Source of the DNA: Candidatus Hydrogenedentota bacterium
GTDB lineage: Bacteria > Hydrogenedentota > Hydrogenedentia > Hydrogenedentales > SLHB01
Direction: 5' to 3'
Length of the DNA: 64,000 bases
Assembly: GCA_020848835.1 (NCBI GenBank)
Contig: JADLHJ010000061.1
Location: 29,456 to 93,455 of the forward strand
Shown here in pieces: positions 3-63,177 of this stretch (its first letter is position 1; the number at the start of each line of letters is the position of its first letter). The notes under the pieces are model-generated. The model had not been told where the DNA came from. It saw only the letters and a program-made list of their open reading frames with translations, and ran no database searches. The translations under genes and the position numbers were made by a program.

Positions 3-3000
3 ACGTCCGATAAATTGACTTCAAGTCGGGACGGCTTTGCAGAGCTTCGCTCGACCTACGACGACAGAGGCTTCCTTGCTGGGGAATCGTTTTTTGATGC
101 GCACGGCAACCCCGTCTACGCGCCCGCCGGTTATCATCGGGTGCAATATGTTCGCGACGGCACCGGATTCGCGACCCGGACGGAATACTTCGGCGCGGAC
201 GGCAACCCCACGTTTGCCCGCGACGGTTTCGCGCGTAGCGAGGTGGTGCTGAGCGAGGATGGCCGCACCTTTGAAGCCTCCTACTTCGGTACGGATGGCT
301 CGCCAGTTTTGTCCGCGAATGGATGGGCGCGTATGACCGTGACTTTGGACGCGCGCGGAAAAATGATCGAAATGCGCGGCATGGACGCTGGTGGCAATCT
401 GCAATCCGGCGTGGACGGATACGCCGCCATTCGCTACGAATATGATGAGCGCGAAAATCTTGTCTCCACCGCCTGGCTCGGCGATGACGGAAAACCGGTC
501 GATACTCCGCGCACGGGTGCCGCTCGCAATCAGTTCAAATATGACGAGAGAGGCAACCTTGTCGAAACTGCGGCGTTCAACGCGGAAAATAAACTTTCTC
601 CGGGGGCAGATGGCATTGCGATGATTCGAAAAGAGTTTGACGATTCCGGTTTCGAAACTCGCACTGCGTACTTCGACGACAACAACCAGCCAGTCCTGTC
701 GCGCGACGGTTTTGCGGCAATCAACTACGAATACGATAGCTTTGGGTATCGTTCCCGCGAATCATATTCGGGTGTCGATGGGAAGCCGGCGCTGTCCAAG
801 CATGGCTACGCAAGCGTTACCATGAAGAACGATGCGCGCGGGAATCTCCTCTCCATCGCGCAGTTTGGAGTGGACGGAAAACCTGCACTGGATGAACAAG
901 GCGCGGCGGAAACCCGATGGACCTTGAACGAACGCGGGCTAACGCTGGAAATCGCCAACTTTGGCACTGACGGAAAGCCAACGGTCATCAAGGACCAATA
1001 TTCCAGGCAGGTTCGCGTCTTGGATGATCGGGGATGGATTACTTCGATTTCGTATTTCGGCAGCGATGGCGCGCCCATGTTGAACAAGGATGCTGTCGCG
1101 CGCATCGACTACGCGTATGACGAAAGGGGCAATACCGCCCGCGAGTCGCATTTCGACACAGAAGGAAGACCGGCGATTTCAGTCAAAGGGTATTCGTCGT
1201 TAGTCCGGATTTTTGATGACAGGGATCGAATCACCTCGCAAACGTTTCTAGACGCGGAAAGCAAGCCGACGCTTTCGGTGGATGGTTACGCGCGCGCGAC
1301 TTCAAAATACGATGACCGAGGCAATCTTGTTGAAGAAGCATATTTCGATGCCAATGGCGCCGCGACATGGACAGCCGACGGCTTTTCTCGTATCAAATAT
1401 GTGTACGATTCCCGAAGCAATCGAACAGAAACCAGCTACCTGGGAACGGATGATAAACCTTCCTATTGCATTGACGGTTACTGCATCGCGCGATTTGATC
1501 ACGACGCATACGGTCGCATAGTTCATGAGGCTTATCTCGGACCGGAGGGCGAACCTGCTGTCCATCGTTCCGGCTATGCATCGCTGACACGCGTATTCAA
1601 CAAGCGGGGCAGAATCGAGCGCGAAGAGTTCTTCGGCGTTGACGCGAAACCCACCCTGTGCGCGGAGGGCTATTTTCGTTTCGTGCGCGAGTACGACGCG
1701 CTCGGGAACGAAACACGCAGCCAGGCGTATGGTACCGACGAAAAGCCAATCGTCACCGTTAAGGGGTACGCCACCATGCGGCAGAGCTACGATGAGCGCG
1801 GCTATCCTGTTTCCCTCGCCTTTTTTGACGCGGAAGACCAACCCTCCGTCGACGTCAACGGCATTTCGCAGATTATGTTTGTGAACGACGCGCTCGGCCG
1901 CGTGGTCGATGAGTCGTATCTCGGAACGAGCGGCGAACCCACCGTGAGCACAAAAGGCATTTCACGGCGAACGCTGCGATTCGATGCGCGCGGGCGAATA
2001 ACCGAAGAATCGAATTTCGGCCTCGACGGGCTTCCAATCATGGTTCGAGACGGCGCTGCAATCACGCGCTATACCTATGACGAAGCCGCGCTCACAACGG
2101 TCTGCGAATTCTTCGGTCCATCCAACCAGCCCGTGCGTTTACCCAGCGGTGCATCGCGTGTGTTTCGGCGCTTCGGCGTTCGTGGCGAGTTGCGGGAAGA
2201 ACAATTCTTCGGTCCGAACGGCCAACCTGTAATTGCGGAAGATGGCTACGCCCATCTCATTCGGGAATATGACGCGCGCGGAAACGTTACGCGCGAACTG
2301 TTTCTCGACGCCACCGATAGACCATACGCAGCAAGAGGGTATTCTGCGGTGGTAAACGAATATGACGAACAGAACAACGCCGTGCTGACTGCTTTTCTCG
2401 GGCCCCGAGGCGAACTTGCGCCTGATGAAACCGGGGCCGCTTTAATCAAGCGCAGGTTCGATGGGCGGAGATTTGTGATAGAGGAATCCTACTTCGATAT
2501 GCGCGAGCAACCGGTAATCACGCGCGATGGCTTTGCGCGGCGGACTCTGGAATACAATCCGCAAGGCTACCAAGTTCGCGAGAGTTTCTTCGGGCCCGAA
2601 GGCGCGCCATTTCTTGCCGGCTCTACGTACGTCACCATAGTCACCGCGCCGGATCTCAATGGATTCCCTCGTGAAGAGTCGTTCCTCGATGCAAGCGGAA
2701 ACCTCGTAGAAAACGCAGCAGGCTTTGCGCGATATACCAAACGGCCCAACGCGCGCGGACAAAACGTTGAATCCGTTTATTACGATAGATACGGAAACCG
2801 TGCTATCACCTCGGAAGGGTTTTCGCGACTCACCGCCGAGTACAACGCGCAAGGCCGCGAAATCGCGCGTGCCTACTGGGGTGTAAACGACGAACCGGTC
2901 GCGCGCGGCGGTTTGTTTGCAAAATGGGCAGCGACCTATGACCCGTACGGAAACTGCACCGGGGAAGCCTTCTACGATATATACGACGCGCTAATCCCTG

Positions 3001-3353
3001 GTCCAAACGGTTTTTCAAAAATTACGCGGACATACGACGAGCAGCACAGGCTCACGGAAGAGATCTACTACGACCCCTCCGGCGCACCGTCGATTTATCC
3101 GTTTGGCTTTGCCCGCATCGTCTGGACCTATGACGACATCGGTAATCTCGTCCGCATCGAATATTCGGACACCGAGGGCAATCCTCAAAACAACGCCAAT
3201 GGCGTGGCCCGCGTCGAAATTACATACGACGAACACGGGCGTGCGCTGCAAACCAGCGAATTCGATGCAACCGGCAAACCGGTGTACGTCACGCCGGATA
3301 CTAATAACAAAAACGGCACCGCTGTCCAAACATCAGCAGAAGTCGGCCCTTAA
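3..3353 (+). CDS. Giant tandem-repeat protein (5'-truncated at window edge). About 29 copies of a ~38-aa unit: DG[FY]A-x5-YDxRGN-x6-[YF]FGxDGKP (YD/RHS- or WG-like beta-hairpin repeats).
   Basis: ORF track 15..3353 starts with TTG and no RBS. The frame is open back to nt 3 and the first residues are already mid-repeat, so the gene begins upstream of the window. Strict ~38-aa periodicity was read directly from the translation, with conserved YD-RGN and FG-DG-P positions. Confidence 0.8.
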   Translation, partial: TSDKLTSSRDGFAELRSTYDDRGFLAGESFFDAHGNPVYAPAGYHRVQYVRDGTGFATRTEYFGADGNPTFARDGFARSEVVLSEDGRTFEASYFGTDGSPVLSANGWARMTVTLDARGKMIEMRGMDAGGNLQSGVDGYAAIRYEYDERENLVSTAWLGDDGKPVDTPRTGAARNQFKYDERGNLVETAAFNAENKLSPGADGIAMIRKEFDDSGFETRTAYFDDNNQPVLSRDGFAAINYEYDSFGYRSRESYSGVDGKPALSKHGYASVTMKNDARGNLLSIAQFGVDGKPALDEQGAAETRWTLNERGLTLEIANFGTDGKPTVIKDQYSRQVRVLDDRGWITSISYFGSDGAPMLNKDAVARIDYAYDERGNTARESHFDTEGRPAISVKGYSSLVRIFDDRDRITSQTFLDAESKPTLSVDGYARATSKYDDRGNLVEEAYFDANGAATWTADGFSRIKYVYDSRSNRTETSYLGTDDKPSYCIDGYCIARFDHDAYGRIVHEAYLGPEGEPAVHRSGYASLTRVFNKRGRIEREEFFGVDAKPTLCAEGYFRFVREYDALGNETRSQAYGTDEKPIVTVKGYATMRQSYDERGYPVSLAFFDAEDQPSVDVNGISQIMFVNDALGRVVDESYLGTSGEPTVSTKGISRRTLRFDARGRITEESNFGLDGLPIMVRDGAAITRYTYDEAALTTVCEFFGPSNQPVRLPSGASRVFRRFGVRGELREEQFFGPNGQPVIAEDGYAHLIREYDARGNVTRELFLDATDRPYAARGYSAVVNEYDEQNNAVLTAFLGPRGELAPDETGAALIKRRFDGRRFVIEESYFDMREQPVITRDGFARRTLEYNPQGYQVRESFFGPEGAPFLAGSTYVTIVTAPDLNGFPREESFLDASGNLVENAAGFARYTKRPNARGQNVESVYYDRYGNRAITSEGFSRLTAEYNAQGREIARAYWGVNDEPVARGGLFAKWAATYDPYGNCTGEAFYDIYDALIPGPNGFSKITRTYDEQHRLTEEIYYDPSGAPSIYPFGFARIVWTYDDIGNLVRIEYSDTEGNPQNNANGVARVEITYDEHGRALQTSEFDATGKPVYVTPDTNNKNGTAVQTSAEVGP

Positions 3354-3533: not shown

Positions 3534-6500
3534 ATGAGCGAACAAGACACCAGTCTTTTGTTTGGGGTTTTCGCGGTTCAGTTCAAGAAGATTACACCGC
3601 AACAACTCCACGAAGTCGCAGCCCTCTGGCAAAAAGAACCCTCCCGCCAATTGTCTCGAATGCTGGTTGAGGCCGGCTACCTATCCGAAGATGACTACAA
3701 CTTTGTCTGCGGCTTAGTCGAAGACGCGCGGCGCGCGCATAAAGGCGACGCGGCCGCAGCCCTGCAGACGTTTGGCGGGCAGCGAACAATCGACGAGACC
3801 TACCGCGGCAGCGTCACCTTAAGCCACGACCAGATTAATACTGTTCCAATGCCGGAAGGCGCCATTCCCGGGATTCCTCTGGATACCGTAGAAGCCGTGG
3901 ACGAAACACCCGGCCGGTATACGAACCAGAGTGAGTACGCTCGAGGCGGCATCGGACGAGTCCTCCTGGTACACGATCAACATCTGGGTCGTGAAATTGC
4001 TATGAAAGAACTGCTGCCCTTCACCGACTATGCCGATGAGTCCATGCGGCTTGAAAAATCGCCGGTCCGGCAAAGCATGGACCTCGTGGTGCGATTCCTG
4101 CAAGAGGCGCGGGTCACCGGGCAGCTCGAACATCCAGCGATAGTGCCGGTTTACGAACTCGGCCGCCGGCGCGACGGAACGCTCTACTACACAATGAAGC
4201 TCGTGCGCGGGCGCACGCTAGGCGCCGCCATACGCGAAGCAGGCACACTTCCGGATCGATTGGCGCTCCTTTCACACTTTGTGGATTTGTGCCAGGCCAT
4301 CGCCTACTCCCACAGCCGCCGCGTAATCCACCGAGACATCAAACCCAGCAACGTCATGGTGGGAAGATTCGGCGAAACGGTAGTGCTCGATTGGGGCCTC
4401 GCAAAAGTAAAGGACAAAAAAGACGAGGCGGCAGCACAGATAGAGGAGACCCTGAAAACGCTCCGCCTACCGCCAGCCGCAAAAGGACATGAAACGCACG
4501 CCGGCCAGGTACTCGGCACGCCGACGTACATGCCCCCAGAACAGGCCGCCGGACAAATAGACCGCATCGACGAGCGCTCGGACATCTATTCGCTTGGCGC
4601 GGTTCTCTATACCCTGCTCACCGGAAAATACCCCTACGACGGGGAAAACGTGAGCGAGATTCTCAATCGCGTACTGGTTGGACCGCCAAAGCCCGTGCTG
4701 GAAGTCGAACCAAACGCGCCACCAGAGTTGGCTGCCATTTGCGAACGCGCCATGCAACGCGAAGCGGACAAACGCTACAAAAACGCCAAAGACCTGGCCG
4801 ACGAAGTGGTTCGCTTCCAAACCGGCGCCTTGGTCCTCGCGCACAGCTACAAATTCAGCGACCATCTCAAACGCTTCGTCCAACGCCACAAACCCGCGCT
4901 CGCCACCGCCGCCCTTTTCACCATCGCGCTAGCCGCCTTCGCCGTCTACTCCTACGTCCGAGTCACCCACGAACGCAACGATGCAATCGTGGCCCGCAAC
5001 GACGAAGCCGAACAACGCAAAATCGCCGAGGAAGCCAAGGTCGCAGAAACCGAACAACGCAATAAAGCGGAGTCAAGGCTTTACTCGTCACAAATTGGCC
5101 TCGCGCAAAGTCAAATCGATGCCAGGCGATTTGATCTCGCGCAGAATGCGCTCGACAGTGCTCCAGAGGGGTTCCGAGGTTGGGAATGGCATTATCTTAA
5201 TGGTTTGTGCAATCAGGACGTCTTTACCTTTGCTAAGCACAAACGTACGGTGAGCAAGCTTGAGGTTAGCCCGGACGGAACGCTGATTGCATCGGGTGAC
5301 GAGGGTGGTGTCGTGTGTATTACTTCCGCATCGACGGGTGAACTGATCCGCGAATTCCCGCCTCTTGACGGAGCCGTTTCCGCGCTTGATTTCGATAGCA
5401 AAGGTACCAGACTCTTAGCCGCTAATCGAGGCGGCGAAATGCGAACCCCCGATGGGAGTGTAATCGTCTGGGACGTCGCGACCGGCCAGCAGACTGTAAC
5501 GATTACCGCTCAAGGCGGCACTTTGTGGGACCCGAGATTCTCTCCCGATGACAAGCTAATTGCAAGTTCAGTAACTAGCCTAGGCGTCCAATTATGGAAC
5601 GCCGCCGACGGAGCGCTGCTACACACATTCAAGTGTGTACCAGCAAATGAAGGTGGTTTGGCGTTTCACCCTTCTGGAAAGCAACTTGCTGCTTGTGTAG
5701 GTACAGATAAATTTGAAGTTAAAGTTTGGGATGTTTTACTGCGCGGCGAGGTTGCTTCGTTGGAAGCACAACCAGATCCAAATACTCAGCTACGATACAG
5801 CCCGGATGGACGCTCGCTGTTATCATGGCGTTCGACCGGTGGCATCGTGCTGTGGAACGAAAGCTACGTCCAGCCTGCGAGACAATTGTTGCCGCCTGAC
5901 GTGAAAGTCCTTTCGTTACAATTCTCGAACGATTCTAGCCGGATGTGTGCAGGTTTGAAAGATGGCTCTGCACAAATCCTCGATGTTGCAACTGGTAACG
6001 TCCTCACTACCCTCTCCGGCCATACCAAAGCGATTGATGATATTCAGTTTTCTTCGGATAACTTGCTCGTTGCTACTGGCTCCGGCGATGGTGCTATCGG
6101 ACTCTGGGACGCGGTGGCAGGAAAACAACTGCATGTGTATGTTGGGCATTCAGCTGAAGCCAGCAAGATACGTTTTACAAAGAATGATGCACTGCTCATT
6201 TCTTGCTCCAGTGACACCACAGTCAAAGCATGGCAAGTCAAGCAGGTACCGGTTCCGCAAAAAATTGTATTGCGAGGACATACAGGTGGCATCAGCCGAA
6301 TAGCGTTTAGCCCAGATGGGGAACGGGTTTTGACCGTTGGGCAAGCCCGCCCACCTTATGAAGAGGATAATACGGTTCGTATATGGAATTGTCGCAACGG
6401 GGTTCAACTTCATGAATTGGTTAGTGCAAACCTCATGATCCATGGTGCCACATGGAGTCCCGACGGTAATTATATCGTGACGAACGCCAGTAAGTCGGTC

Positions 6501-7280
6501 GTGGTATGGGACGCAAATACCGGTCAGCAACGTCACGAATTGGCGGGGCACAAGGGGCCCGTACATAAGGCTTTATTTAGTCCCGACGGAAAGACGATTC
6601 TTACAGTATCGGGCGATAAGACGGCAATTCTATGGCGCGTGAGCGATGGTTCCATAATCCACACGCTGGCCGGCCACCTGGCGCGGGTTGAGGGCGGCGC
6701 TTTCAGCCCTAACGGGAAGTTGATCGCGACCAACTCCGTCGACCGTTCAATCCGTGTTTGGGATACGGAAACCGGCAATGCAGTTGCTGTTCTTCAGGGT
6801 CACCAGGCGCCAATAAACGCAGTCATGTTCATGAACGACGGTAATCGTTTGATAAGCGCAGCGGGCGATGACACACTAATACTGTGGGATGTGGGCGAGG
6901 GGAAAGCTATTCGCGTCTTCCACGGACATTCCGGAATCGTCTTCGATGCAGCGATAAACGTCGATGAACGAGTGCTCGTGTCAGTCGCAACAGACGCAAC
7001 GCTACGGTTGTGGGATATCGAGTCCGGTAATCAGATTGCACAAGGCGATGGGCATTCGTTGGACGTGTTAAGTGTGGCTTTCAGTCCGGACGGTAGTAGA
7101 ATAGTCTCTACTGGAGATGACCGTACTGTGCGAATTTGGGACGCGAAAGATGCCAGAGAAGTAGCTGTATTTCGCGAACATAGCGATGTCGTTACAGATG
7201 CGGTCTTCAGTCCGGACGGATCAACTATCGCAACCTGCGGTGAGGATGGTATAGCGATCTTGCATAAACTTCCCAAATGA
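3534..7280 (+). CDS. Membrane Ser/Thr protein kinase: N-terminal GspE-N/MshEN-like helical domain, Hanks kinase domain, one TM helix, coiled coil, then about 14-16 C-terminal WD40 repeats.
   Basis: Kinase motifs HRDIKPSN, DWGLAK and GTPTYMPPE. TM segment ALATAALFTIALAAFAVYSYV. Repeated ...GH...V..V.FSPDG..L..S.D.T..(V/L)WD... units across the C-terminal half. RBS GGAGAGAAGG upstream of the ATG. Confidence 0.9.
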   Translation: MSEQDTSLLFGVFAVQFKKITPQQLHEVAALWQKEPSRQLSRMLVEAGYLSEDDYNFVCGLVEDARRAHKGDAAAALQTFGGQRTIDETYRGSVTLSHDQINTVPMPEGAIPGIPLDTVEAVDETPGRYTNQSEYARGGIGRVLLVHDQHLGREIAMKELLPFTDYADESMRLEKSPVRQSMDLVVRFLQEARVTGQLEHPAIVPVYELGRRRDGTLYYTMKLVRGRTLGAAIREAGTLPDRLALLSHFVDLCQAIAYSHSRRVIHRDIKPSNVMVGRFGETVVLDWGLAKVKDKKDEAAAQIEETLKTLRLPPAAKGHETHAGQVLGTPTYMPPEQAAGQIDRIDERSDIYSLGAVLYTLLTGKYPYDGENVSEILNRVLVGPPKPVLEVEPNAPPELAAICERAMQREADKRYKNAKDLADEVVRFQTGALVLAHSYKFSDHLKRFVQRHKPALATAALFTIALAAFAVYSYVRVTHERNDAIVARNDEAEQRKIAEEAKVAETEQRNKAESRLYSSQIGLAQSQIDARRFDLAQNALDSAPEGFRGWEWHYLNGLCNQDVFTFAKHKRTVSKLEVSPDGTLIASGDEGGVVCITSASTGELIREFPPLDGAVSALDFDSKGTRLLAANRGGEMRTPDGSVIVWDVATGQQTVTITAQGGTLWDPRFSPDDKLIASSVTSLGVQLWNAADGALLHTFKCVPANEGGLAFHPSGKQLAACVGTDKFEVKVWDVLLRGEVASLEAQPDPNTQLRYSPDGRSLLSWRSTGGIVLWNESYVQPARQLLPPDVKVLSLQFSNDSSRMCAGLKDGSAQILDVATGNVLTTLSGHTKAIDDIQFSSDNLLVATGSGDGAIGLWDAVAGKQLHVYVGHSAEASKIRFTKNDALLISCSSDTTVKAWQVKQVPVPQKIVLRGHTGGISRIAFSPDGERVLTVGQARPPYEEDNTVRIWNCRNGVQLHELVSANLMIHGATWSPDGNYIVTNASKSVVVWDANTGQQRHELAGHKGPVHKALFSPDGKTILTVSGDKTAILWRVSDGSIIHTLAGHLARVEGGAFSPNGKLIATNSVDRSIRVWDTETGNAVAVLQGHQAPINAVMFMNDGNRLISAAGDDTLILWDVGEGKAIRVFHGHSGIVFDAAINVDERVLVSVATDATLRLWDIESGNQIAQGDGHSLDVLSVAFSPDGSRIVSTGDDRTVRIWDAKDAREVAVFREHSDVVTDAVFSPDGSTIATCGEDGIAILHKLPK

Positions 7281-7349
7281 TAGGCTGCAAAACTCCCGCC
7301 AGCAGAATTGGGGATCGAGAATGTGTGACGAAACAAAGGAGGTAGGACC

Positions 7350-7661
7350 ATGGCGACCACGTGTACAGTAACCCTGCGAACCCAAAGTGCGAAGTACAAC
7401 CCACCGGTGAGTGGAAGGCCAACACCGCCAACTTTGGCAGACCTAAACGATGTTGTTGTTTTTGTTTACGGAAGGGAGTGCTTAATGATGAAAGGGGGGC
7501 CGACGTTTACTTTTGATTTGCGGCCAGGACAGTACGAATTGTTTGTTAAAGACCGGTCAACAGCTAACGACGATCCGCATATTAAGAAGTTGCTCCGAAT
7601 CACTGGATTTGAACCTGGTAATGCTATCAACATGCAAATATCAGTTTCGTGGCTTTCTTAA
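7350..7661 (+). CDS. Small signal-less hypothetical beta-rich protein (module A, partner 1); paralog of 8197..8487.
   Basis: RBS AAGGAGG 7 nt upstream of the ATG. Shares L(A/T)DL(N/D)(D/N)VVV..(Y/V)G.E....K.GGPT.TF.L.(P/R)G..E.FVKD...I.G.E.G...I.V with the downstream paralog. C-terminal ...PGQYELFVKD resembles the CarboxypepD_reg/transthyretin-like beta-sandwich ending. Confidence 0.65.
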   Translation: MATTCTVTLRTQSAKYNPPVSGRPTPPTLADLNDVVVFVYGRECLMMKGGPTFTFDLRPGQYELFVKDRSTANDDPHIKKLLRITGFEPGNAINMQISVSWLS

Positions 7662-7685
7662 TTATAGTTTTACTAGGAGAGGATA

Positions 7686-8084
7686 ATGAATAGTACACGA
7701 CGAGCATTTCTGCAATCTGCGCGTACGATCGCTGTAGCGGGAGCGGCCATTTCGGCGCAAGGCATAGCGGAAGAAAATGATCTAAAACATTCATTTATTG
7801 GGCCTTGTTGGTCTCCCCCTAATGACGATCTGACCATTCATGTCTACGACCAAATCTCTGGAGCATATATTGGAGATGCTTTAGTGCGTCTTGTACCTAG
7901 ATTTAACGGAACGGAATTAGAAAAGTACACAGGTGCCATGACGGGCAATGCTGTTTTCAGTTCCGGCCAAGACGGACGTTATGATGTTGAAATATCCCAT
8001 CCGAGCTATCCGTCTGGCGGCTTCCTGGGGAACAAAAACTTTACCTCAGCAACACTGCCGCAGACCGTACATTGTCCGCTCTAA
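7686..8084 (+). CDS. Tat-signal small secreted protein with carboxypeptidase-regulatory-like (CarboxypepD_reg/Cna-B-like) domain (module A, partner 2); paralog of 8544..8963.
   Basis: RBS AGGAGAGG upstream. Canonical twin-arginine motif TRRAFLQSA followed by an Ala-rich h-region. Core IHVYDQISGAYIGDALVRLVPRFNG...GQDGRYDVEISHPSYP matches the CarboxypepD_reg-like pattern. Confidence 0.7.
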   Translation: MNSTRRAFLQSARTIAVAGAAISAQGIAEENDLKHSFIGPCWSPPNDDLTIHVYDQISGAYIGDALVRLVPRFNGTELEKYTGAMTGNAVFSSGQDGRYDVEISHPSYPSGGFLGNKNFTSATLPQTVHCPL

Positions 8085-8196
8085 TATTAAGAGCCAGTGT
8101 TAATGTATTTGATACGCGATTTTCGTAAGAATTATACGGGAATTAGTGTTAGCGACTTATGGGAAAATTTCTTTTAAGGCAATGGAGGAAGAATTA

Positions 8197-8487
8197 ATGG
8201 GAAGTCACAGAAGGATTGACGTGGTTGTAAATACAAAGCGACTAACAGGGGCCGGTTCCACCGAAGACAATTGGACAGACCTGGACAATGTTGTCGTGTG
8301 TATAGTGGGAAAGGAGCCAATTATTAAAACAGGCGGGCCGACCTTAACATTCAGATTACCTCGTGGTCCGCATGAAATCTTCGTGAAAGATCTAACAGCG
8401 GGGCCCCGTGATATTTGTAAGCGTCATATTAATATTTCCGGCAGCGAACAGGGGGGGGCACTAAGTTTGACGATCGCTGTACCGTAA
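8197..8487 (+). CDS. Small signal-less hypothetical beta-rich protein (module B, partner 1); paralog of 7350..7661.
   Basis: ATG at 8197 with GGAGGA 7 nt upstream, the same spacing as the paralog. The ORF-track start at 8146 is probably an upstream in-frame Met. Conserved LDNVVVCIVGKE...KTGGPTLTFRLPRGPHEIFVKD. Confidence 0.6.
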   Translation: MGSHRRIDVVVNTKRLTGAGSTEDNWTDLDNVVVCIVGKEPIIKTGGPTLTFRLPRGPHEIFVKDLTAGPRDICKRHINISGSEQGGALSLTIAVP

Positions 8488-8543
8488 CGTTTCGCCGGAT
8501 TACTCTGCTTGATAAGCTTTTCATTTAAAATAGGATTTAAATA

Positions 8544-8963
8544 ATGCACAAAACACGCCGAGCCTTTTTAAAATCCGCGGGTGTCGTTGCAACGGGAACA
8601 GCGCTGGCTACACCCGATGCTGAAGCGGAAGCAAATGACAAGGCAGAAGATAAGGCAGCAGCAGTTGAAACTGCACCTGGGCCTGTTGATCCAGAGTTCT
8701 CGAACTTTGTAGTGCACGTGTACAATCAATCTTCTGGCGCCCATATACAAGACGCCATAGTGCATCTCGAACCTAGATTTAACGGGGTGGGGTATGACCA
8801 ACAAACGGGATCCAATGGTCAAGCAGCTTTCGGATCTGGCGATAACGGGCGCTATGATATAGAAGTTTCTCATCAGGACTACTATCCCGATTATGTGTTG
8901 AATAAATTGTTAAACGGCACTACAACACCAACGACGCTTGAGTTTCCACTTCAGCATTTATAG
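8544..8963 (+). CDS. Tat-signal small secreted protein with carboxypeptidase-regulatory-like domain (module B, partner 2).
   Basis: TRRAFLKSAGVVATGTALA Tat signal. VHVYNQSSGAHIQDAIVHLEPRFNG...GDNGRYDIEVSHQDYYP is paralogous to 7686..8084. Confidence 0.7.
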   Translation: MHKTRRAFLKSAGVVATGTALATPDAEAEANDKAEDKAAAVETAPGPVDPEFSNFVVHVYNQSSGAHIQDAIVHLEPRFNGVGYDQQTGSNGQAAFGSGDNGRYDIEVSHQDYYPDYVLNKLLNGTTTPTTLEFPLQHL

Positions 8964-9178
8964 TGCCACTGAAAATAGTATGGGCTGGACGTATACGGTA
9001 TTTCAGTGCAGTCGGCAGTGTCGTCGTGTGTTTGTTCGTTTGCTCTAACAGGGGAATTCTGCTCCCACGTCAACTGGCATTTCCGGCTCCCATTGACTAC
9101 CATGACGAAACATCCGTTTATGCATGATGCAACGGATTTCAGAACGGACGTACCACCTCGGATTGGGAGCGAAAATTC

Positions 9179-10492
9179 ATGAGCGATTGCACTTCTACAC
9201 AAACTTCCCGCAGGGACTTTATGCGTGTGGCGGGAACAGCCGCCGCGGCCGCTGCGACGACGCGGATATTGGCGGCGAACAGCGTGTACGCCGCGGAGAA
9301 TGGAGTGTTGCGGGTCGGCTTGTCGGGGTGCGGCGGGCGCGGGACGGGGGCGGCGCGGCAGGCCTTGATGGCGGACCCGGACACGAAACTGGTCGCCCTG
9401 GGCGATTTGTTCGCGGACAAAATTGATGGAGCGCTGAACAATCTCAAGAGCTACGGCCCGATTGCGGATCGTGTGCAGGTGGACGACGATCACAAGTTCA
9501 TCGGGTTCGATGCATATAAGAAGGTCATCGATTCGGTCGATGTGTTGGTGATGGCGGAGACGCCGGCGTTTCGTCCGATGATTTTGCGGCACGCAATAGA
9601 GCAGGGCAAGCATTGTTTCGTGGAGAAGCCTATCGCGGTGGATCCGTCGGGCGTGCGGTCCGTGTTGGAAAGCTGCGAGATGGCGAAGGGGAAAAATCTC
9701 GCGGTCGTCTCCGGTCTTTGTTACCGCTACAGCTTTTCCAAGCGCGAAATCCTGAAGCGCATCCACGACGGCGAGATCGGCGACATCATCGCGATGGAAA
9801 CGAAATACAACACGGGCACGCCGTGGCAACCGAAGGACCGCCTGCCGGAGTGGAGCGACATGGAATACCAGTGCCGCAATTGGTATTTCTACGATTGGCT
9901 TTCGGGCGACTTCAACGTCGAGCAGCACATCCACAGCCTCGACAAGCTGGCCTGGTCGATGAACGATGTGACGCCCGTGAAAGTGTGGGCAAACGGCGGA
10001 CGCGCGGTGCGCACGGCGGAGAAGTACGGCAACATCTACGATCACTTCAACGCCGTGTACGAATATGCGAACGGCGTGCGCGCGTACAGCTCCTGCCGTC
10101 AGTGGGACAACACGGACACGGACGTGAACGATCACATCATGGGCACGAAAGGCATCGCGCATCTGCAGGATCACAAGATCGAATTCCGCGACGGCAAGAC
10201 CTGGCAGCACGAACAAAAAGAAAAAGACGACATGTACCAGAACGAGCACGACGCGTTTTTCGCGTGCATTCGCAAGGGCGAGCCGATTAACAACGGCGAG
10301 TACATGTGCAAGAGCACGATGATGGGTATCGCCGCGCGCATGGCCGCGTACACGGGCCGGATCCTGACCTGGGACGAAGTGTGGAACAGCCCCTACAGCG
10401 CAATGCCGGAAAAGCTGGAATTCGGGCCGATTGCGCTGCCCGCGCTGGCGCGTCCGGGTGAGACCAAGCTGCCCTTCGCCGCAAAAGCGTAA
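9179..10492 (+). CDS. Gfo/Idh/MocA family NAD(P)-dependent oxidoreductase with Tat signal peptide.
   Basis: SRRDFMRVAGTAAAAAA Tat motif. Rossmann motif GLSGCGGRGTG. ...EKP... and the family-typical C-terminal alpha/beta domain. Confidence 0.85.
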   Translation: MSDCTSTQTSRRDFMRVAGTAAAAAATTRILAANSVYAAENGVLRVGLSGCGGRGTGAARQALMADPDTKLVALGDLFADKIDGALNNLKSYGPIADRVQVDDDHKFIGFDAYKKVIDSVDVLVMAETPAFRPMILRHAIEQGKHCFVEKPIAVDPSGVRSVLESCEMAKGKNLAVVSGLCYRYSFSKREILKRIHDGEIGDIIAMETKYNTGTPWQPKDRLPEWSDMEYQCRNWYFYDWLSGDFNVEQHIHSLDKLAWSMNDVTPVKVWANGGRAVRTAEKYGNIYDHFNAVYEYANGVRAYSSCRQWDNTDTDVNDHIMGTKGIAHLQDHKIEFRDGKTWQHEQKEKDDMYQNEHDAFFACIRKGEPINNGEYMCKSTMMGIAARMAAYTGRILTWDEVWNSPYSAMPEKLEFGPIALPALARPGETKLPFAAKA

Positions 10493-10511
10493 GGTATTTC
10501 GGAACAAATTT

Positions 10512-10545
10512 GAGGGCCGTGGCGCGCCACGGCCCTCTTCTTTTC
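10512..10545 (+). terminator. Rho-independent terminator: perfect 13-bp palindromic GC-rich stem followed by a T-tract.
   Basis: GAGGGCCGTGGCG|CGCCACGGCCCTC followed by TTCTTTTC, 20 nt after the stop of the 9179..10492 gene. Confidence 0.6.
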
Positions 10546-10702
10546 GCCCGGCAATTTTCGCGCGGATTTGATATACTATTTCCGCTAGTTACGGGGGACG
10601 GTTCGCGTGATGGGGAACACGCGCCGCGAACTTGATGGGGGTATTTGTCCTTCCAATTCTTCATTCTTGAAAAGCCAAGCAACCAGAGGGGGAATTCTGG
10701 TC

Positions 10703-11533
10703 ATGGGTAAGATCGGTATTGGGATCAATCTCGAATTCGTGCGGCACGAGGACAAGCCCTTCGAGTGGGGCGTCGAGAAGGCCGCGGAACTCGGCTACGA
10801 GTATGTCGAGCCGATGGTGCATCTCGGCCGCGAACTCCTGAGCGAGGCCGGCTACTTCCACAGCGTTTCGATGCTCGACGATCCGTATCGCGTGAAGCGT
10901 GCCTGCGAGAAGGTAGGTGTGAAGTTGTCGGGGTTCAGCGCGCATTGTCCCCTGTGCAAACCAGAGATCAGCACAGAGTATCTCAAACAGGCGATCCGCT
11001 TCGCGGCGGAGGCGGGCGCGCCGGTCTGCAACACGGACGAAGGCCCAAAACCGAAGTGGACGACCGTCGAAGAAGATCATGTGCTAATGCGATACGTACT
11101 GCGCGAGGCGAGCTATCTCGCGGAATCGCGCGGTATCCTCATCGGCATCGAGCCGCACCAGCAATACAGCAAACATCCCGACGGGCTCGACCGCATCTAC
11201 AACCTCGTGCAAAGCATGGCCATTGGTATCAACTTCGACACGGGCAACAGCTTTCTTTGCGGGCACGATCCATACGAATGGTTGGAGCGCGTCAAAGATC
11301 GGTTGGTCCACCTGCACGCGAAGGACATCTCAGTGCAACAGGCTGGGCAAGAACGAGGCAAGGTTACCGGCACGCCGGTGGGATGCGCCTGCGGCGACGG
11401 CGTGATCGACTGGAAGCGCGTCATCGAGATCGTCAAGACCGCCCCACGCGATATTGTGTTATCGGTCGAGTGCGGCACGGTGGAGCAAGGTAAGCGGAGC
11501 ATTGCGCATCTGAACGCGATACTTGGACGATAG
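10703..11533 (+). CDS. Sugar phosphate isomerase/epimerase (xylose isomerase-like TIM barrel).
   Basis: ATG at 10703 with RBS AGAGGGGG. The 10607 start in the ORF track adds an unlikely N-terminal extension. Sequence such as GIEPHQ...INFDTGN...HLHAKD is typical of AP-endonuclease-2/xylose-isomerase-like TIM barrels. Confidence 0.8.
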   Translation: MGKIGIGINLEFVRHEDKPFEWGVEKAAELGYEYVEPMVHLGRELLSEAGYFHSVSMLDDPYRVKRACEKVGVKLSGFSAHCPLCKPEISTEYLKQAIRFAAEAGAPVCNTDEGPKPKWTTVEEDHVLMRYVLREASYLAESRGILIGIEPHQQYSKHPDGLDRIYNLVQSMAIGINFDTGNSFLCGHDPYEWLERVKDRLVHLHAKDISVQQAGQERGKVTGTPVGCACGDGVIDWKRVIEIVKTAPRDIVLSVECGTVEQGKRSIAHLNAILGR

Positions 11534-11544
11534 GAGGAGCGGGC

Positions 11545-12480
11545 ATGTCGCGATTTACGGCTAGTGTTATCATCGCGCTGATCGTATTCGCGGGATTGGA
11601 CAGTGCAGCGGAATTGTCGCTGGTTTCGACAGGCGATAATGTTGGCTTGTATACACATAACCCAAATCGGGCGGCGCTACTTTATGTGTTTGGTAAGGAC
11701 CAATTCAAACCTTACGCGCAAGAGTTGTACACGCCGAATCGTGTCAACATCCTGCGCGATGCGCCTTCTGACCACTTGCATCATCACGGACTCATGTTTG
11801 CCATTCGGGTAAATGGCGTTAATTTTTGGGAAGAACGCGACAACCCGGGCAAGCAGAAAGTAGTTCCCGGAAAACTCGCAAGTGTTTCCAAGTCCGTACC
11901 AGGGGAAGGTATTACTGAATCGCTTGAATGGATCGGCCCCGGCGACAATGGCGTCATACTCAATGAAACGCGCACAATCGTCGCGCACCAAGTAGACGAT
12001 ACACCGGTCACGCTGCTCTCATGGCAATCGGTCCTGCACGACATCGACGGCAAGCCTGAGCCGAAATTTCACGGCACGAACTACAACGGCCTTGGCATGC
12101 GCTTTCTCGAATCCATGGACAAGGGCGGATCGTTCTTCAATGCCGACGGTGCTACGGGCGTGGCGGGCACGGTGGGCTCGAAATCGAATTGGTGTGCGTA
12201 CACAGCAAGTGCCGATGGAAAACCGGTGACGGTGGCGATGTTCGATCATCCAACGAATGAGCGGCATCCTGCGACGTGGTACACGATGGACACGCCGTTT
12301 GCGTATTTGTCGGCGACGCTTGCGCTGGACAAAGAACCGCTGCAAAAAAAGGACCTCACGCTCACCTATGGCGTTGCGGCCTGGGATGGGACGAAAACAA
12401 AAGAAGAAGTTGAGGAGATGTATCAACGCTGGTTGAAGCTTGTGGAACCGCTTGTTGCGTCCACGGCGCCGGCAAAATAG
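11545..12480 (+). CDS. Secreted hypothetical protein, possibly PmoA-like (DUF6807) family, as commonly co-located with Gfo/Idh/MocA oxidoreductases.
   Basis: N-terminal signal peptide MSRFTASVIIALIVFAGLDSAAE. HHHGLMFA motif. Sits within the oxidoreductase/isomerase operon. Family assignment is recalled from memory, not computed. Confidence 0.4.
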   Translation: MSRFTASVIIALIVFAGLDSAAELSLVSTGDNVGLYTHNPNRAALLYVFGKDQFKPYAQELYTPNRVNILRDAPSDHLHHHGLMFAIRVNGVNFWEERDNPGKQKVVPGKLASVSKSVPGEGITESLEWIGPGDNGVILNETRTIVAHQVDDTPVTLLSWQSVLHDIDGKPEPKFHGTNYNGLGMRFLESMDKGGSFFNADGATGVAGTVGSKSNWCAYTASADGKPVTVAMFDHPTNERHPATWYTMDTPFAYLSATLALDKEPLQKKDLTLTYGVAAWDGTKTKEEVEEMYQRWLKLVEPLVASTAPAK

Positions 12481-12496
12481 CTCCGGGGGGAGTGCT

Positions 12497-13792
12497 ATGA
12501 ACACAGAATCGAATTCGGTCAGGCCGACGCGCCGCAGCTTCATCTACACCGCCGGGGGAATGGCGGCGGGCACGGTGCTCTCGCAGTTCGCGTTGGGACA
12601 AACGCCGGTGGGTGCGAACGATCGCATTGGCGTGGGGTTCCTCGGTTGCGGCGGGCGCGGCTCGTATCACGCCAAGGAACTTGCGGGCATGCGCGATCGC
12701 GGCGAGGCGATTGAACTCGTTGCCGCATGCGACACGTATCGTCCGCGCATGAACGCGCTGGCGGCGAAGCAAAATCTAAAAGCGTATTGGGCGCAGCAGG
12801 AATTGCTCGCGGATGCAAATGTGGACGTCGTGTGTATCGCCACGCCGGATCATATTCACGGACAGCAGGCAATTGACGCGGTACACGCTGGAAAAGACGT
12901 GTATTGCGAGAAGCCGTTTACGCATTGGCGGCAGCTCGAATTGACGAAGACGGCCTGCGACGAAATTGGCAAATCGGACCGCGTGTTTCAACTCGGCACG
13001 CAAGGGTTGTCCGATCCCGTGTGGCACGAGATGGCGAAATTCATCAAAGACGGATTGATCGGCCAACCGATTCATGCGGAGTGCGGGTACTTTCGCGTAG
13101 GCGACTGGGGCGAACGGGGGATGCCCATCGACGATCCGAATGTGAAACCGGGCGACAATTTGAATTGGGACGCATTTCTCGGCGACGCGCCGAAGCGCGA
13201 TTTCGATGCGAGCCGTTATTTTCGTTGGCGCATGTATGAAGACTACAGCGGCGGACCCGTGACGGATCTGTTTCCGCATTCGCTGACCCCCGTGGTTTAC
13301 ATGCTGAACATCGGCGTGCCGTCGCAGGCCGTGGGTCTCGGCGGGATTTATCGTTATCCTGAGCGTGAGGTGCCGGACACGTTCAACATGCTGCTCGATT
13401 ACCCGGAGAAGTTGACGCTTGCCGTACTGGGCACGCAGGGCAACAACATGCAAGGGGCGCATGGCCGCGGTGCGGGCGGGCGTTGTCCGCACCTTCGCGG
13501 ATGGGACGGCACCCTCACCGTGATGCCAAACCGCGACACGAAACTGGACGAGATCGTGTTCACGCCCGCGGAAGGCGCGAAGAAGGACGCAGTGCGCATT
13601 CGTGTCGAAGGACACGAGAGCGTGCCGGACCATTGGAAAAATCTGCTCGATTGCATGCGTTCGCGCGAGAAACCGCACAGCTCGATCGACTTGGCGTATC
13701 GCGTGCAGACCGCGCTCCAAATGGCGGCGCACGCCACGCGAAACGGGAAGACAGCGAAGTATGACGCGAATGCGCGCGCGGTTGTCGTATAG
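12497..13792 (+). CDS. Gfo/Idh/MocA family oxidoreductase with Tat signal peptide.
   Basis: ATG at 12497 with GGGGGGAG RBS. TRRSFIYTAGGMAAG Tat motif. GFLGCGGRGSYH Rossmann motif. Confidence 0.85.
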   Translation: MNTESNSVRPTRRSFIYTAGGMAAGTVLSQFALGQTPVGANDRIGVGFLGCGGRGSYHAKELAGMRDRGEAIELVAACDTYRPRMNALAAKQNLKAYWAQQELLADANVDVVCIATPDHIHGQQAIDAVHAGKDVYCEKPFTHWRQLELTKTACDEIGKSDRVFQLGTQGLSDPVWHEMAKFIKDGLIGQPIHAECGYFRVGDWGERGMPIDDPNVKPGDNLNWDAFLGDAPKRDFDASRYFRWRMYEDYSGGPVTDLFPHSLTPVVYMLNIGVPSQAVGLGGIYRYPEREVPDTFNMLLDYPEKLTLAVLGTQGNNMQGAHGRGAGGRCPHLRGWDGTLTVMPNRDTKLDEIVFTPAEGAKKDAVRIRVEGHESVPDHWKNLLDCMRSREKPHSSIDLAYRVQTALQMAAHATRNGKTAKYDANARAVVV

Positions 13793-62985: not shown

Positions 62986-63060
62986 TGCCGGATAGCCAAA
63001 TGGTAAGGCGCCTGCCTCTGGAGCAGGAGATTCTAGGTTCGAGTCCTAGTCCGGCAGCCA
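62986..63060 (+). tRNA. tRNA-Gln (anticodon CUG), CCA encoded.
   Basis: Cloverleaf folded by hand: acceptor UGCCGGA/UCCGGCA, D-arm GCC-AAAUGGUAA-GGC, anticodon stem CCUGC/GCAGG with loop CUCUGGA, T-arm CUAGG-UUCGAGU-CCUAG, discriminator G, CCA. Confidence 0.85.
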
Positions 63061-63102
63061 TAAGCCAACACTGAGGCGGCCTTCAAGCCGCCTTCTCTGT
63101 GC

Positions 63103-63177
63103 GGCCCGTTCATCTAGGGGTTAGGATGCGGGATTCTCAGTCCCGTCACAGGGGTTCGAATCCCCTACGGGCTGCCA
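63103..63177 (+). tRNA. tRNA-Glu (anticodon CUC), CCA encoded.
   Basis: Aligns position-by-position with E. coli tRNA-Glu (GGCCCGUUCAUCUAGGGGUUAGGAU...GGGGUUCGAAUCCCC...). Anticodon stem CGGGA/UCCCG, loop UUCUCAG, T-arm AGGGG-UUCGAAU-CCCCU. G1·U72 wobble, discriminator G, CCA. Confidence 0.8.

Follow-up and report, generated by a model that had tools for sequence, protein, structure and literature searches.

Directly downstream of a receptor-type Ser/Thr kinase gene, the window (the whole 64-kb stretch of Hydrogenedentota DNA that was analyzed, part of a deposited metagenome-assembled genome [MAG]) carries four small genes that form two diverged copies of one pair, A1-B1 and A2-B2. The A and B proteins are two previously unrecognized, extremely rare, clade-restricted small-protein families, and modeling suggests that both are free-standing single-domain members, of ~10 to 12 kDa, of the transthyretin-like (CarboxypepD_reg/CnaB-type) superfold. 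We lean toward regarding the genes as a kinase-linked cassette of binding modules, in which those B proteins that bear a twin-arginine (RR) signal for the Tat pathway are periplasmic. A fuller reading, in which the cassette is a lineage-restricted, fast-evolving accessory at the 3' end of the receptor kinase gene and A and B are binding partners in the periplasm, is plausible and in our estimate falls somewhat short of an even chance. The features on which these readings are based are as follows.

3534..7280, + strand: receptor-type Ser/Thr kinase with a Pkinase domain at residues 136 to 416 (Pfam); such a gene lies directly upstream of every known A/B member
7336..7342, + strand: Shine-Dalgarno sequence AAGGAGG, 7 nt upstream of the A1 ATG, read directly
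7350..7661, + strand: A1, 103 aa, signal-less, basic (pI 8.7), predicted eight-stranded transthyretin-like β-sandwich
7686..8084, + strand: B1, 132 aa, Tat-type signal, linker, and acidic CarboxypepD_reg-like β-sandwich; deposited as IT366_14355
7686..7757, + strand: predicted twin-arginine signal peptide of B1, MNSTRRAFLQSARTIAVAGAAISA (residues 1 to 24, TRRAFLQ…AISA; cleavage site inferred by inspection)
8085..9176, + strand: variable slot, consisting of A2-B2 and the flanking spacers, without a nucleotide counterpart in the sister genome (locus L001)
8197..8487, + strand: A2, 96 aa, paralog of A1, signal-less, basic (pI 8.8)
8544..8963, + strand: B2, 139 aa, paralog of B1, Tat-type signal at residues 1 to 22; deposited as IT366_14360
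8544..8609, + strand: predicted twin-arginine signal peptide of B2, MHKTRRAFLKSAGVVATGTALA (residues 1 to 22, TRRAFLK…TALA; motif read directly)

Two small-protein families beside a receptor kinase gene

The original prediction had proposed a tandemly duplicated two-gene module at this position, and four open reading frames (ORFs) on the + strand begin and end exactly where it had placed them. The kinase gene and A1 are separated by 69 bp, in which a terminator scan found no terminator-like site; promoter and terminator scans were not above shuffled expectation, and no RNA element was detected in the spacers at E ≤ 1. Besides the site in front of A1, Shine-Dalgarno-like motifs precede B1 (GGAGAGG), A2 (GGAGGA), and, in a weak form, B2 (AGGA), and nearly all members of the two families have such motifs. 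For A2, a GTG at 8146 would also open the frame, but GGAGGA in front of the ATG at 8197 makes the latter the better start. A1 and B1 share a reading frame, which is interrupted by three stop codons between 7350 and 8081. The locus tags of B1 and B2 are consecutive in the deposited MAG, and the exact sequences of A1 and A2 were not found among 15 billion proteins, which indicates that the two A genes were never annotated in the MAG. The unannotated A1 and A2 genes nevertheless have strong Shine-Dalgarno sites and orthologs or paralogs under purifying selection.

Together with the window, five loci are known to carry members of these families, and their gene orders are listed below.

Window: kinase-WD40, A1, B1, A2, B2, Gfo/Idh/MocA
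L001 (6.6-Mb genome GCA_963852985.1): kinase, A, B with Tat signal, B3 (111 aa, no signal), 556 bp of non-coding DNA, Gfo
L004: kinase, A, B with Tat signal, contig end
L005: kinase, B3, contig end
L007: kinase, B3, A-like gene (102 aa), B-like gene without RR (partial)
Genes of the B3 subtype: L001, 10877-11212; L005, 807-1139; L007, 413-763

The A and B proteins of L001 are called sA and sB, the B protein of L004 is called L4B, and the A-like and B-like proteins of L007 are called L7A and L7x, respectively. The L005 and L007 lineages were sampled in ERR12350055 and SRR28161541. The C-terminal parts of the kinases are 73 to 90% identical across the loci; therefore, all five loci are orthologous and belong to one narrow clade. 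In 5/5 known loci the cassette directly follows the orthologous gene for the kinase with its transmembrane (TM) helix and WD40 repeats. Each of the five A genes (A1 and A2 in the window and one each in L001, L004, and L007) has a B gene as its downstream neighbor, with gaps of 24 to 56 bp, so that the A-B pair, whose co-occurrence in other genomes the original prediction had left to be checked, is present in three further loci.

The two pairs of the window are diverged paralogs, as expected from the old duplication that had been proposed: A1 and A2 are 42% identical over 69 aa (E = 3e-16), and B1 and B2 are 40% identical over 139 aa (E = 2e-30; both BLASTP). No significant similarity between A and B was found by BLASTP, and the idea that A and B are distant homologs was rejected at the sequence level (hhalign probability, 0.2%), which leaves a common fold only. 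The 64-kb window contains no further A or B copies. In a matrix of core-domain identities, the B proteins fall into a B1 type (B1, sB, and L4B, 64 to 74% identical), a B2 type (B2 and L7x, 51% identical), and a B3 type (66 to 70% identical to each other). B1 is 69% identical to its ortholog sB. The only relative of A2 outside the A1 group of the window is L7A, with weak similarity (E = 1e-4). The pairs travel as units, in that the gene for the nearest relative of B2, the B-like gene of L007, is itself preceded by an A2-like gene. The B3 proteins are absent from the window; they have 110 to 116 aa, no signal peptide, and an acidic N-terminal extension, and they are well conserved (dN/dS, the ratio of nonsynonymous to synonymous substitution rates, ~0.13).

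The second pair is the variable part of the cassette. The blastn alignment of the window with L001 ends at 8085 and restarts at 9177, and in place of A2-B2 the sister locus has the signal-less B3 gene and the 556 bp of non-coding DNA. In that region of L001 (11213-11767, between B3 and Gfo/Idh/MocA), no gene was called and nothing aligned with the window, and tblastn found no remnants of A2 or B2. Since B2 and L7x are of the same subtype and A2 is similar to L7A, A2-B2 is an old pair lineage that recurs in L007 and was lost or replaced in L001.

Both families are very small. A search of 5.8 billion clusters with A1 gave a single relative (P0001, 82% identical), and an exhaustive HMMER scan of 1.84 billion representatives with the A profile gave only P0001 and P0009 as full-length relatives. 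The B profile found seven proteins among the 5.8 billion clusters, two of which are B1 and B2 themselves; the alignment of these seven sequences is too diverse for a pattern to be derived. No match was obtained with the A profile in metagenomes, with the B profile in GTDB species genomes and JGI metagenomes, or with the B3 profile in genomes. The original prediction could not assign the four proteins to a named family, and none claims them here. For CarboxypepD_reg (PF13620), B1 and B2 scored 20.2 and 25.7 bits, respectively, below the gathering threshold of 32.3, and the precomputed CarboxypepD_reg match of P0004 is flagged as weak. B2 also has an Ig_DR_A0283-like Pfam match, and A1 and A2 have no Pfam match at all. 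NCBIfam, PADLOC, and PHROGs gave no match for the A or B domains, and PADLOC and PHROGs gave none for A1, B1, A2, B2, or B3.

Predicted folds, export signals, and proposed partnership

The AlphaFold2 (AF2) model of A1 is an eight-stranded all-β structure (predicted local distance difference test score [pLDDT] = 82.7, from a shallow alignment). That of B2, also from a shallow alignment, contains a β-sandwich at residues 55 to 139 (pLDDT = 78 to 96), and its residues 1 to 51, i.e., the signal and an acidic linker of ~30 aa, are disordered in the model. The predicted structures have the seven- to eight-stranded β-sandwich that characterizes the transthyretin-like fold, which usually provides surfaces for binding or assembly and not for catalysis. 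At the sequence level, the B profile matches the CnaB-type domain of RrgA (E = 2.9e-6), and the A profile gave no match in the same kind of search. Among 1.84 billion representatives, the A profile remotely matched CarboxypepD_reg/PEGA/NOMO-type repeats in giant proteins, and these matches center on a TFTF-L-x-PG-x-Y-x-L hairpin. The G-x-Y-(E/D)-(L/I/V) hairpin motif with which all four proteins had been said to end is internal and not terminal, and A2 has G-P-H-E-I in its place. A search of viral folds (BFVD) with A returned generic β-sandwiches only, none at E ≤ 1e-3.

Compared with CarboxypepD_reg/transthyretin-like domains (PF13620; the transthyretin-like domain of CPD, PDB accession number 5aq0), A and B remain below the gathering threshold, A without any match. 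They stand alone instead of forming domains of peptidases, TonB receptors, or adhesins, and B has a family-specific LEPRFNG loop. The CnaB-type domains of pilins and adhesins (RrgA, SpaA, and BcpA) differ from A and B in that the latter lack a sortase signal and are single domains in a diderm-type organism. No isopeptide triad of Lys (first strand), Asp/Asn (last strand), and catalytic Glu is invariant in the A or B alignments (four sequences per family, by inspection). CnaB pilin-like subunits or an analog of Tat fimbriae were considered but not favored, as no conserved triad was seen in these few sequences and the A model has no dangling donor strand. The subunits of the tafi, which are haloarchaeal, all carry Tat signals (PMC11821415). 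An HIUase/transthyretin enzyme (YedX/PucM) was rejected: profile matches to 2igl and 2g2n had E values of only 0.3 to 0.5, and the C-termini, read directly, are …VHCPL and …PLQHL without YRGS. HIUases have conserved catalytic His and Arg residues and a C-terminal Y-R-G-S motif.

The most apt precedent for A and B is Kustc1130, the hydrazine dehydrogenase (HDH) assembly factor of Kuenenia stuttgartiensis (PDB accession number 6hif, chain Y), a free-standing ~10-kDa protein of the same fold that acts in assembly via mainly electrostatic contacts (PMC6469936). The identity with A and B is 15 to 20%, and no sequence-level homology was detected. Kustc1130 also differs in its context, the anammox HDH, in which it is unpaired and has no kinase link and no reported Tat signal.

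The twin-arginine motifs that had been read in both gene-2 proteins are present (MNSTRRAFLQ in B1 and MHKTRRAFLK in B2), and the gene-1 proteins do lack a signal, since neither A ORF allows an upstream extension and neither N-terminus is hydrophobic. By inspection, B1, B2, P0004, and P0005 have all retained the (S/T)RRxFL(K/Q) motif together with an h-region and a site resembling A-x-A, despite identities of 40 to 69%; the motif of P0004 and P0005 is SRRTFLQ. The organism uses the Tat pathway, as indicated by the product of the adjacent Gfo/Idh/MocA gene, which passes the TIGR01409 model at 17.7 bits. A signal-less partner is encoded and conserved beside the member of the signal-bearing family for 5/5 A genes. 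The charges of the two families are opposite: all five A-type proteins are basic (pI 8.7 to 10.5, net charge +2 to +7), and all eight B-type proteins are acidic (pI 4.3 to 4.9, net charge −6 to −13), the pI values of mature B1 and B2 being 4.9 and 4.3, respectively. Opposite charge and 5/5 adjacency are compatible with an electrostatic A·B heteromer.

The kinase has a single hydrophobic helix at residues ~453 to 477, the only Kyte-Doolittle peak above 1.6, which is followed by a coiled coil and then by ~700 aa of WD40 repeats, with propellers at residues ~546 to 900 and ~900 to 1248. If the topology is that of PknB/PknD-type kinases, the WD40 part is expected in the periplasm. PknD of Mycobacterium tuberculosis has the same architecture, i.e., a kinase domain, a single TM helix, and a C-terminal β-propeller, whereas its propeller is of the NHL type and that of the window kinase is of the WD40 type; we know of no co-encoded small exported partner described for PknD. 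Residues 124 to 440 of the kinase also match Ser/Thr kinase models of PADLOC (PD-T4-6, up to 228 bits; mad6; MkoA; and PglW). These matches probably reflect generic similarity among Hanks-type kinases, and the surroundings are not a defense island; a defense system was not favored as a candidate, because the kinase matches only via its generic kinase domain and the small proteins match nothing.

From these features we infer an A·B complex, its co-export, a periplasmic WD40 part, and such contact as may exist with that part, in the following order. The basic, signal-less A and the acidic B would be made in similar amounts from their tightly spaced genes and would associate in the cytoplasm. If the B protein bears a twin-arginine signal (B1 and B2), Tat would export the complex in its folded state and A would travel as the passenger; in the periplasm, A and B would serve as accessory or binding partners of the kinase WD40 propellers. 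The cassette itself diversifies by birth and death of its members and by recombination among relatives. Co-export is plausible because B is an ~85-residue, cofactor-less β-sandwich without an obvious need for Tat, a signal-less partner is encoded upstream of it, and the charges of the two are opposite. That A hitchhikes on B via Tat is nevertheless a tentative proposal, clearly below an even chance.

Known Tat hitchhikers (the small and large subunits of hydrogenases, PaoABC, MelC1-MelC2, and the γ and α subunits of FAD-glucose dehydrogenase [GDH]) resemble A and B in that a signal-less protein is encoded beside the sole carrier of a signal. MelC1 is a small carrier protein. The known passengers, in contrast, are cofactor enzymes, whereas A and B are both ~10-kDa β-sandwiches without an evident cofactor, and the signal is absent from some B paralogs. 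The γ subunit of GDH is likewise a small Tat carrier (PMC4273604, PMC6719666).

Several observations weigh against the co-export of periplasmic binding partners. None of the signals quite reaches the cut-off of its model: for TIGR01409 (cut-off, 16.7 bits), B1 scored 13.9, B2 scored 14.0, and P0004 and P0005 scored 16.5 and 16.0 bits, and for PF10518 (cut-off, 22.7 bits), B2 scored 15.1 bits. Half of the B-type proteins (4/8, namely the three B3 proteins and L7x) are signal-less. The partial L7x, on a truncated contig, starts with MQRKSNKTMSREPK…, which has neither RR nor an h-region, and its ORF cannot be longer because a stop codon lies in frame 6 nt upstream. Among the B-type proteins, it is L7x that is closest to B2, and its gene is paired with an A-like gene, yet it is signal-less; thus, Tat export is not a constant of the pair, and in L007 the carrier has not kept its signal. 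The sister genome has A-B-B3 and not two pairs, which argues against strict Tat hitchhiking. The periplasmic topology of the WD40 part is drawn from one hydropathy peak and the PknB/PknD analogy, and since the five loci are orthologous and from one clade, kinase linkage and A-B adjacency may in part reflect shared descent. It is also common for a secreted protein to be acidic and for a small protein to be basic. Finally, the A-B cassette and the distal WD40 segment have different nearest relatives (see below), which does not suggest tight co-evolution of B and the propeller.

The main alternative, in which A and B act in different compartments, is possible, if rather doubtful. B would be exported alone by Tat and bind its partners in the periplasm, A would be a cytoplasmic substrate or adaptor of the kinase domain or a dedicated chaperone or escort of the signal peptide or fold of B, and the adjacency of their genes would reflect co-regulation. 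A is signal-less in every lineage, the kinase domain is cytoplasmic, and the signal-less B3 and L7x suggest that members of the family can be cytoplasmic. The conserved GGPTFTF strand of A has one Thr that does not vary among four sequences; however, this residue is in a β-strand and may be purely structural. Tat proofreading chaperones encoded beside their substrates are well known, but the known ones (the TorD/DmsD, NapD, and HyaE families) differ in fold and act on enzymes with cofactors. A stable complex would explain the consistent opposite charge and the 5/5 adjacency no less well than co-regulation would.

A more elaborate form of the co-export reading is a variable ligand-receptor kinase module, in which A and B would be diversifying ligands made by the cell for its own receptor and the A·B heterodimer would dock on the WD40 propellers and tune signaling, possibly for kin or strain discrimination; we consider it improbable. 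Equally improbable is its corollary that recombination shuffles cassette variants and propeller segments, with A and B as the first natural Tat hitchhiker consisting of two tiny β-sandwiches.

Selection, recombination, and base composition

The A and B genes are under purifying selection and change several-fold faster than their neighbors. The dN/dS value (ω) was 0.17 for A1 versus sA and 0.41 for B1 versus sB, 0.38 to 0.48 for A and B versus L004, and 0.13 to 0.14 among the B3 proteins, compared with 0.10 for the kinase gene and 0.03 for the Gfo gene; dN versus L004 was 0.46 for A, 0.29 for B, and 0.077 for the kinase. Within the kinase gene, ω was 0.03 to 0.05 in the kinase domain and 0.11 to 0.25 in the WD40 part, below the 0.17 to 0.48 of A and B.

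Sliding-window identities revealed that the nearest relatives change along the locus. In the kinase domain, L001 and L004 are nearest to each other (0.87 to 0.92); in the distal WD40 part, the window and L004 are nearest (0.90 to 0.96); and in the A-B cassette, the window and L001 are nearest (0.75 to 0.81), with L004 down to 0.62 to 0.69. Between the window and L004, dS ranges from 0.18 (WD40 codons 901 to 1100) to 1.95 (kinase domain). With three nearest-neighbor relations within 4 kb (window 4014-8084), the kinase locus is therefore a recombination mosaic. What is observed is recombination among close relatives in place of an island, with the cassette as the changeable part next to a gene that is conserved.

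The original prediction had described a drop in GC content right after the kinase gene and had taken it as a sign of horizontal acquisition. The dip is real, with GC contents of 0.44 to 0.48 in 400-bp windows over 7401-9200 compared with 0.558 for the whole window, but it does not start where it had been placed, as the GC content is already ~0.50 to 0.55 over the WD40 half of the kinase gene. The GC content at third codon positions (GC3) is 0.47 in A1, 0.40 in B1, 0.45 in A2, and 0.40 in B2, i.e., 4 to 5.7 standard deviations (SD) below the background of 0.67 ± 0.05 (34 non-overlapping ORFs of at least 250 aa). The GC content at second codon positions (GC2) is normal or slightly high in the cassette. 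Because GC2 is normal and the dip is at synonymous sites, it is not an effect of amino acid composition, which had been named as a possible trivial cause. The extent of the region is as follows.

4990..9000, + strand: low-GC3 block, made up of the kinase gene downstream of its TM segment (WD40 part) and of A1, B1, A2, and B2 (boundaries approximate)

At kinase codon ~480 to 500, immediately after the sole hydrophobic helix, GC3 falls from ~0.67 to values of 0.39 to 0.57. It stays low over the WD40 repeats and all of the cassette and jumps to 0.80 in the gene downstream of B2. The orthologous loci L001 and L004 have this step within the kinase gene as well; hence, the low-GC3 block is an old shared property of the WD40 and cassette segment and not a recent insertion. 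The step is sharp (~0.67 to 0.78 before and ~0.40 to 0.57 after it) and is located at ~4970-5050 in the window, ~7600-7700 in L001, and ~900-1000 in L004. Candidate causes are an ancient fusion with a foreign block of WD40 and cassette and a different regime of codon selection for the extracytoplasmic part.

We consider it quite unlikely that the genes are a horizontally acquired island whose products would be secreted as a heterodimer (a bacteriocin, an inhibitor, or an adhesin) without a functional tie to the kinase. The low GC3, the fast protein evolution with a gene content that varies among close relatives, and the extremely narrow phyletic distribution would fit such an island. However, the block of low GC3 has its start within the kinase gene and recurs at the orthologous loci despite a divergence of dS ~0.6 to 1.1, and the cassette is at the same position in all five lineages. 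No tRNA, flanking direct repeat, RNA family, integrase, or other mobility gene was found at the block; the only long direct repeat, of 71 nt, is the paralogous segment of B1 and B2, and the other three direct-repeat families are two-copy matches of 15 to 21 nt that do not flank the block. No donor lineage was detectable in 1.84 or 5.8 billion proteins. The position and age of the block thus do not support horizontal acquisition as it had been proposed, and nothing specific supports a bacteriocin or adhesin role: there is no toxin, immunity, defense, or phage family match, PADLOC and PHROGs included, and the β-sandwich is without catalytic or pore-forming features.

It is very improbable that the genes lack a function or are decaying, whether as spurious ORFs or as pieces left by the fission of a multidomain surface protein; PGAP missed A1 and A2, dN/dS is relatively high in some comparisons (0.4 to 0.48), and the gene content differs among relatives, but all five lineages have intact ORFs, dN/dS is clearly less than 1 (0.17 for A1 versus sA and 0.13 among the B3 proteins), the paralogs are recognizable only at the protein level, the Shine-Dalgarno sites are strong, and AF2 gave confident compact folds from very shallow alignments.

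The neighboring genes are metabolic according to Pfam. The cluster directly downstream of the cassette (9179-13792) is conserved in L001, looks like a periplasmic sugar or inositol-type oxidation module, and contains four genes.

9179-10492: Gfo/Idh/MocA oxidoreductase with a Tat signal
10610-11533: xylose-isomerase-like TIM barrel
11545-12480: DUF6807
12497-13792: second Gfo/Idh/MocA

Directly upstream of the kinase gene and on the same strand, a 1,006-aa ORF (333-3353) has no Pfam match at E ≤ 1e-5. The sister genome has a 1,626-aa protein without a Pfam match at the equivalent position, and the genes for the two proteins align only at their 3' ends (window 3001-3283, 78% nucleotide identity). 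On the − strand, an Arg/His/Val-rich ORF of 518 aa (8951-10507) lies opposite the Gfo/Idh/MocA gene and overlaps the 3' end of B2 by 13 bp; it is almost certainly a shadow ORF of the GC-rich coding strand. The only tRNA genes of the window, tRNA-Gln(CTG) and tRNA-Glu(CTC) in tandem at 62986-63177, are far from the cassette.

Significance of the cassette

If co-export is true, Tat hitchhiking would extend from cofactor enzymes to minimal cofactor-less binding modules, and A and B would be a very small natural carrier and passenger pair that may be usable for Tat-based display or selection. If the cassette acts with the WD40 sensor, it would offer a rare handle on what β-propeller receptor Ser/Thr kinases, including those of the PknD type, sense. 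Orphan small β-sandwich proteins are common, and the solid value of the present finding lies in two clade-restricted small-protein families, of which the A family was missed by the deposited annotation, and in a recombining birth-and-death cassette beside a conserved signaling gene in the little-studied phylum Hydrogenedentota.

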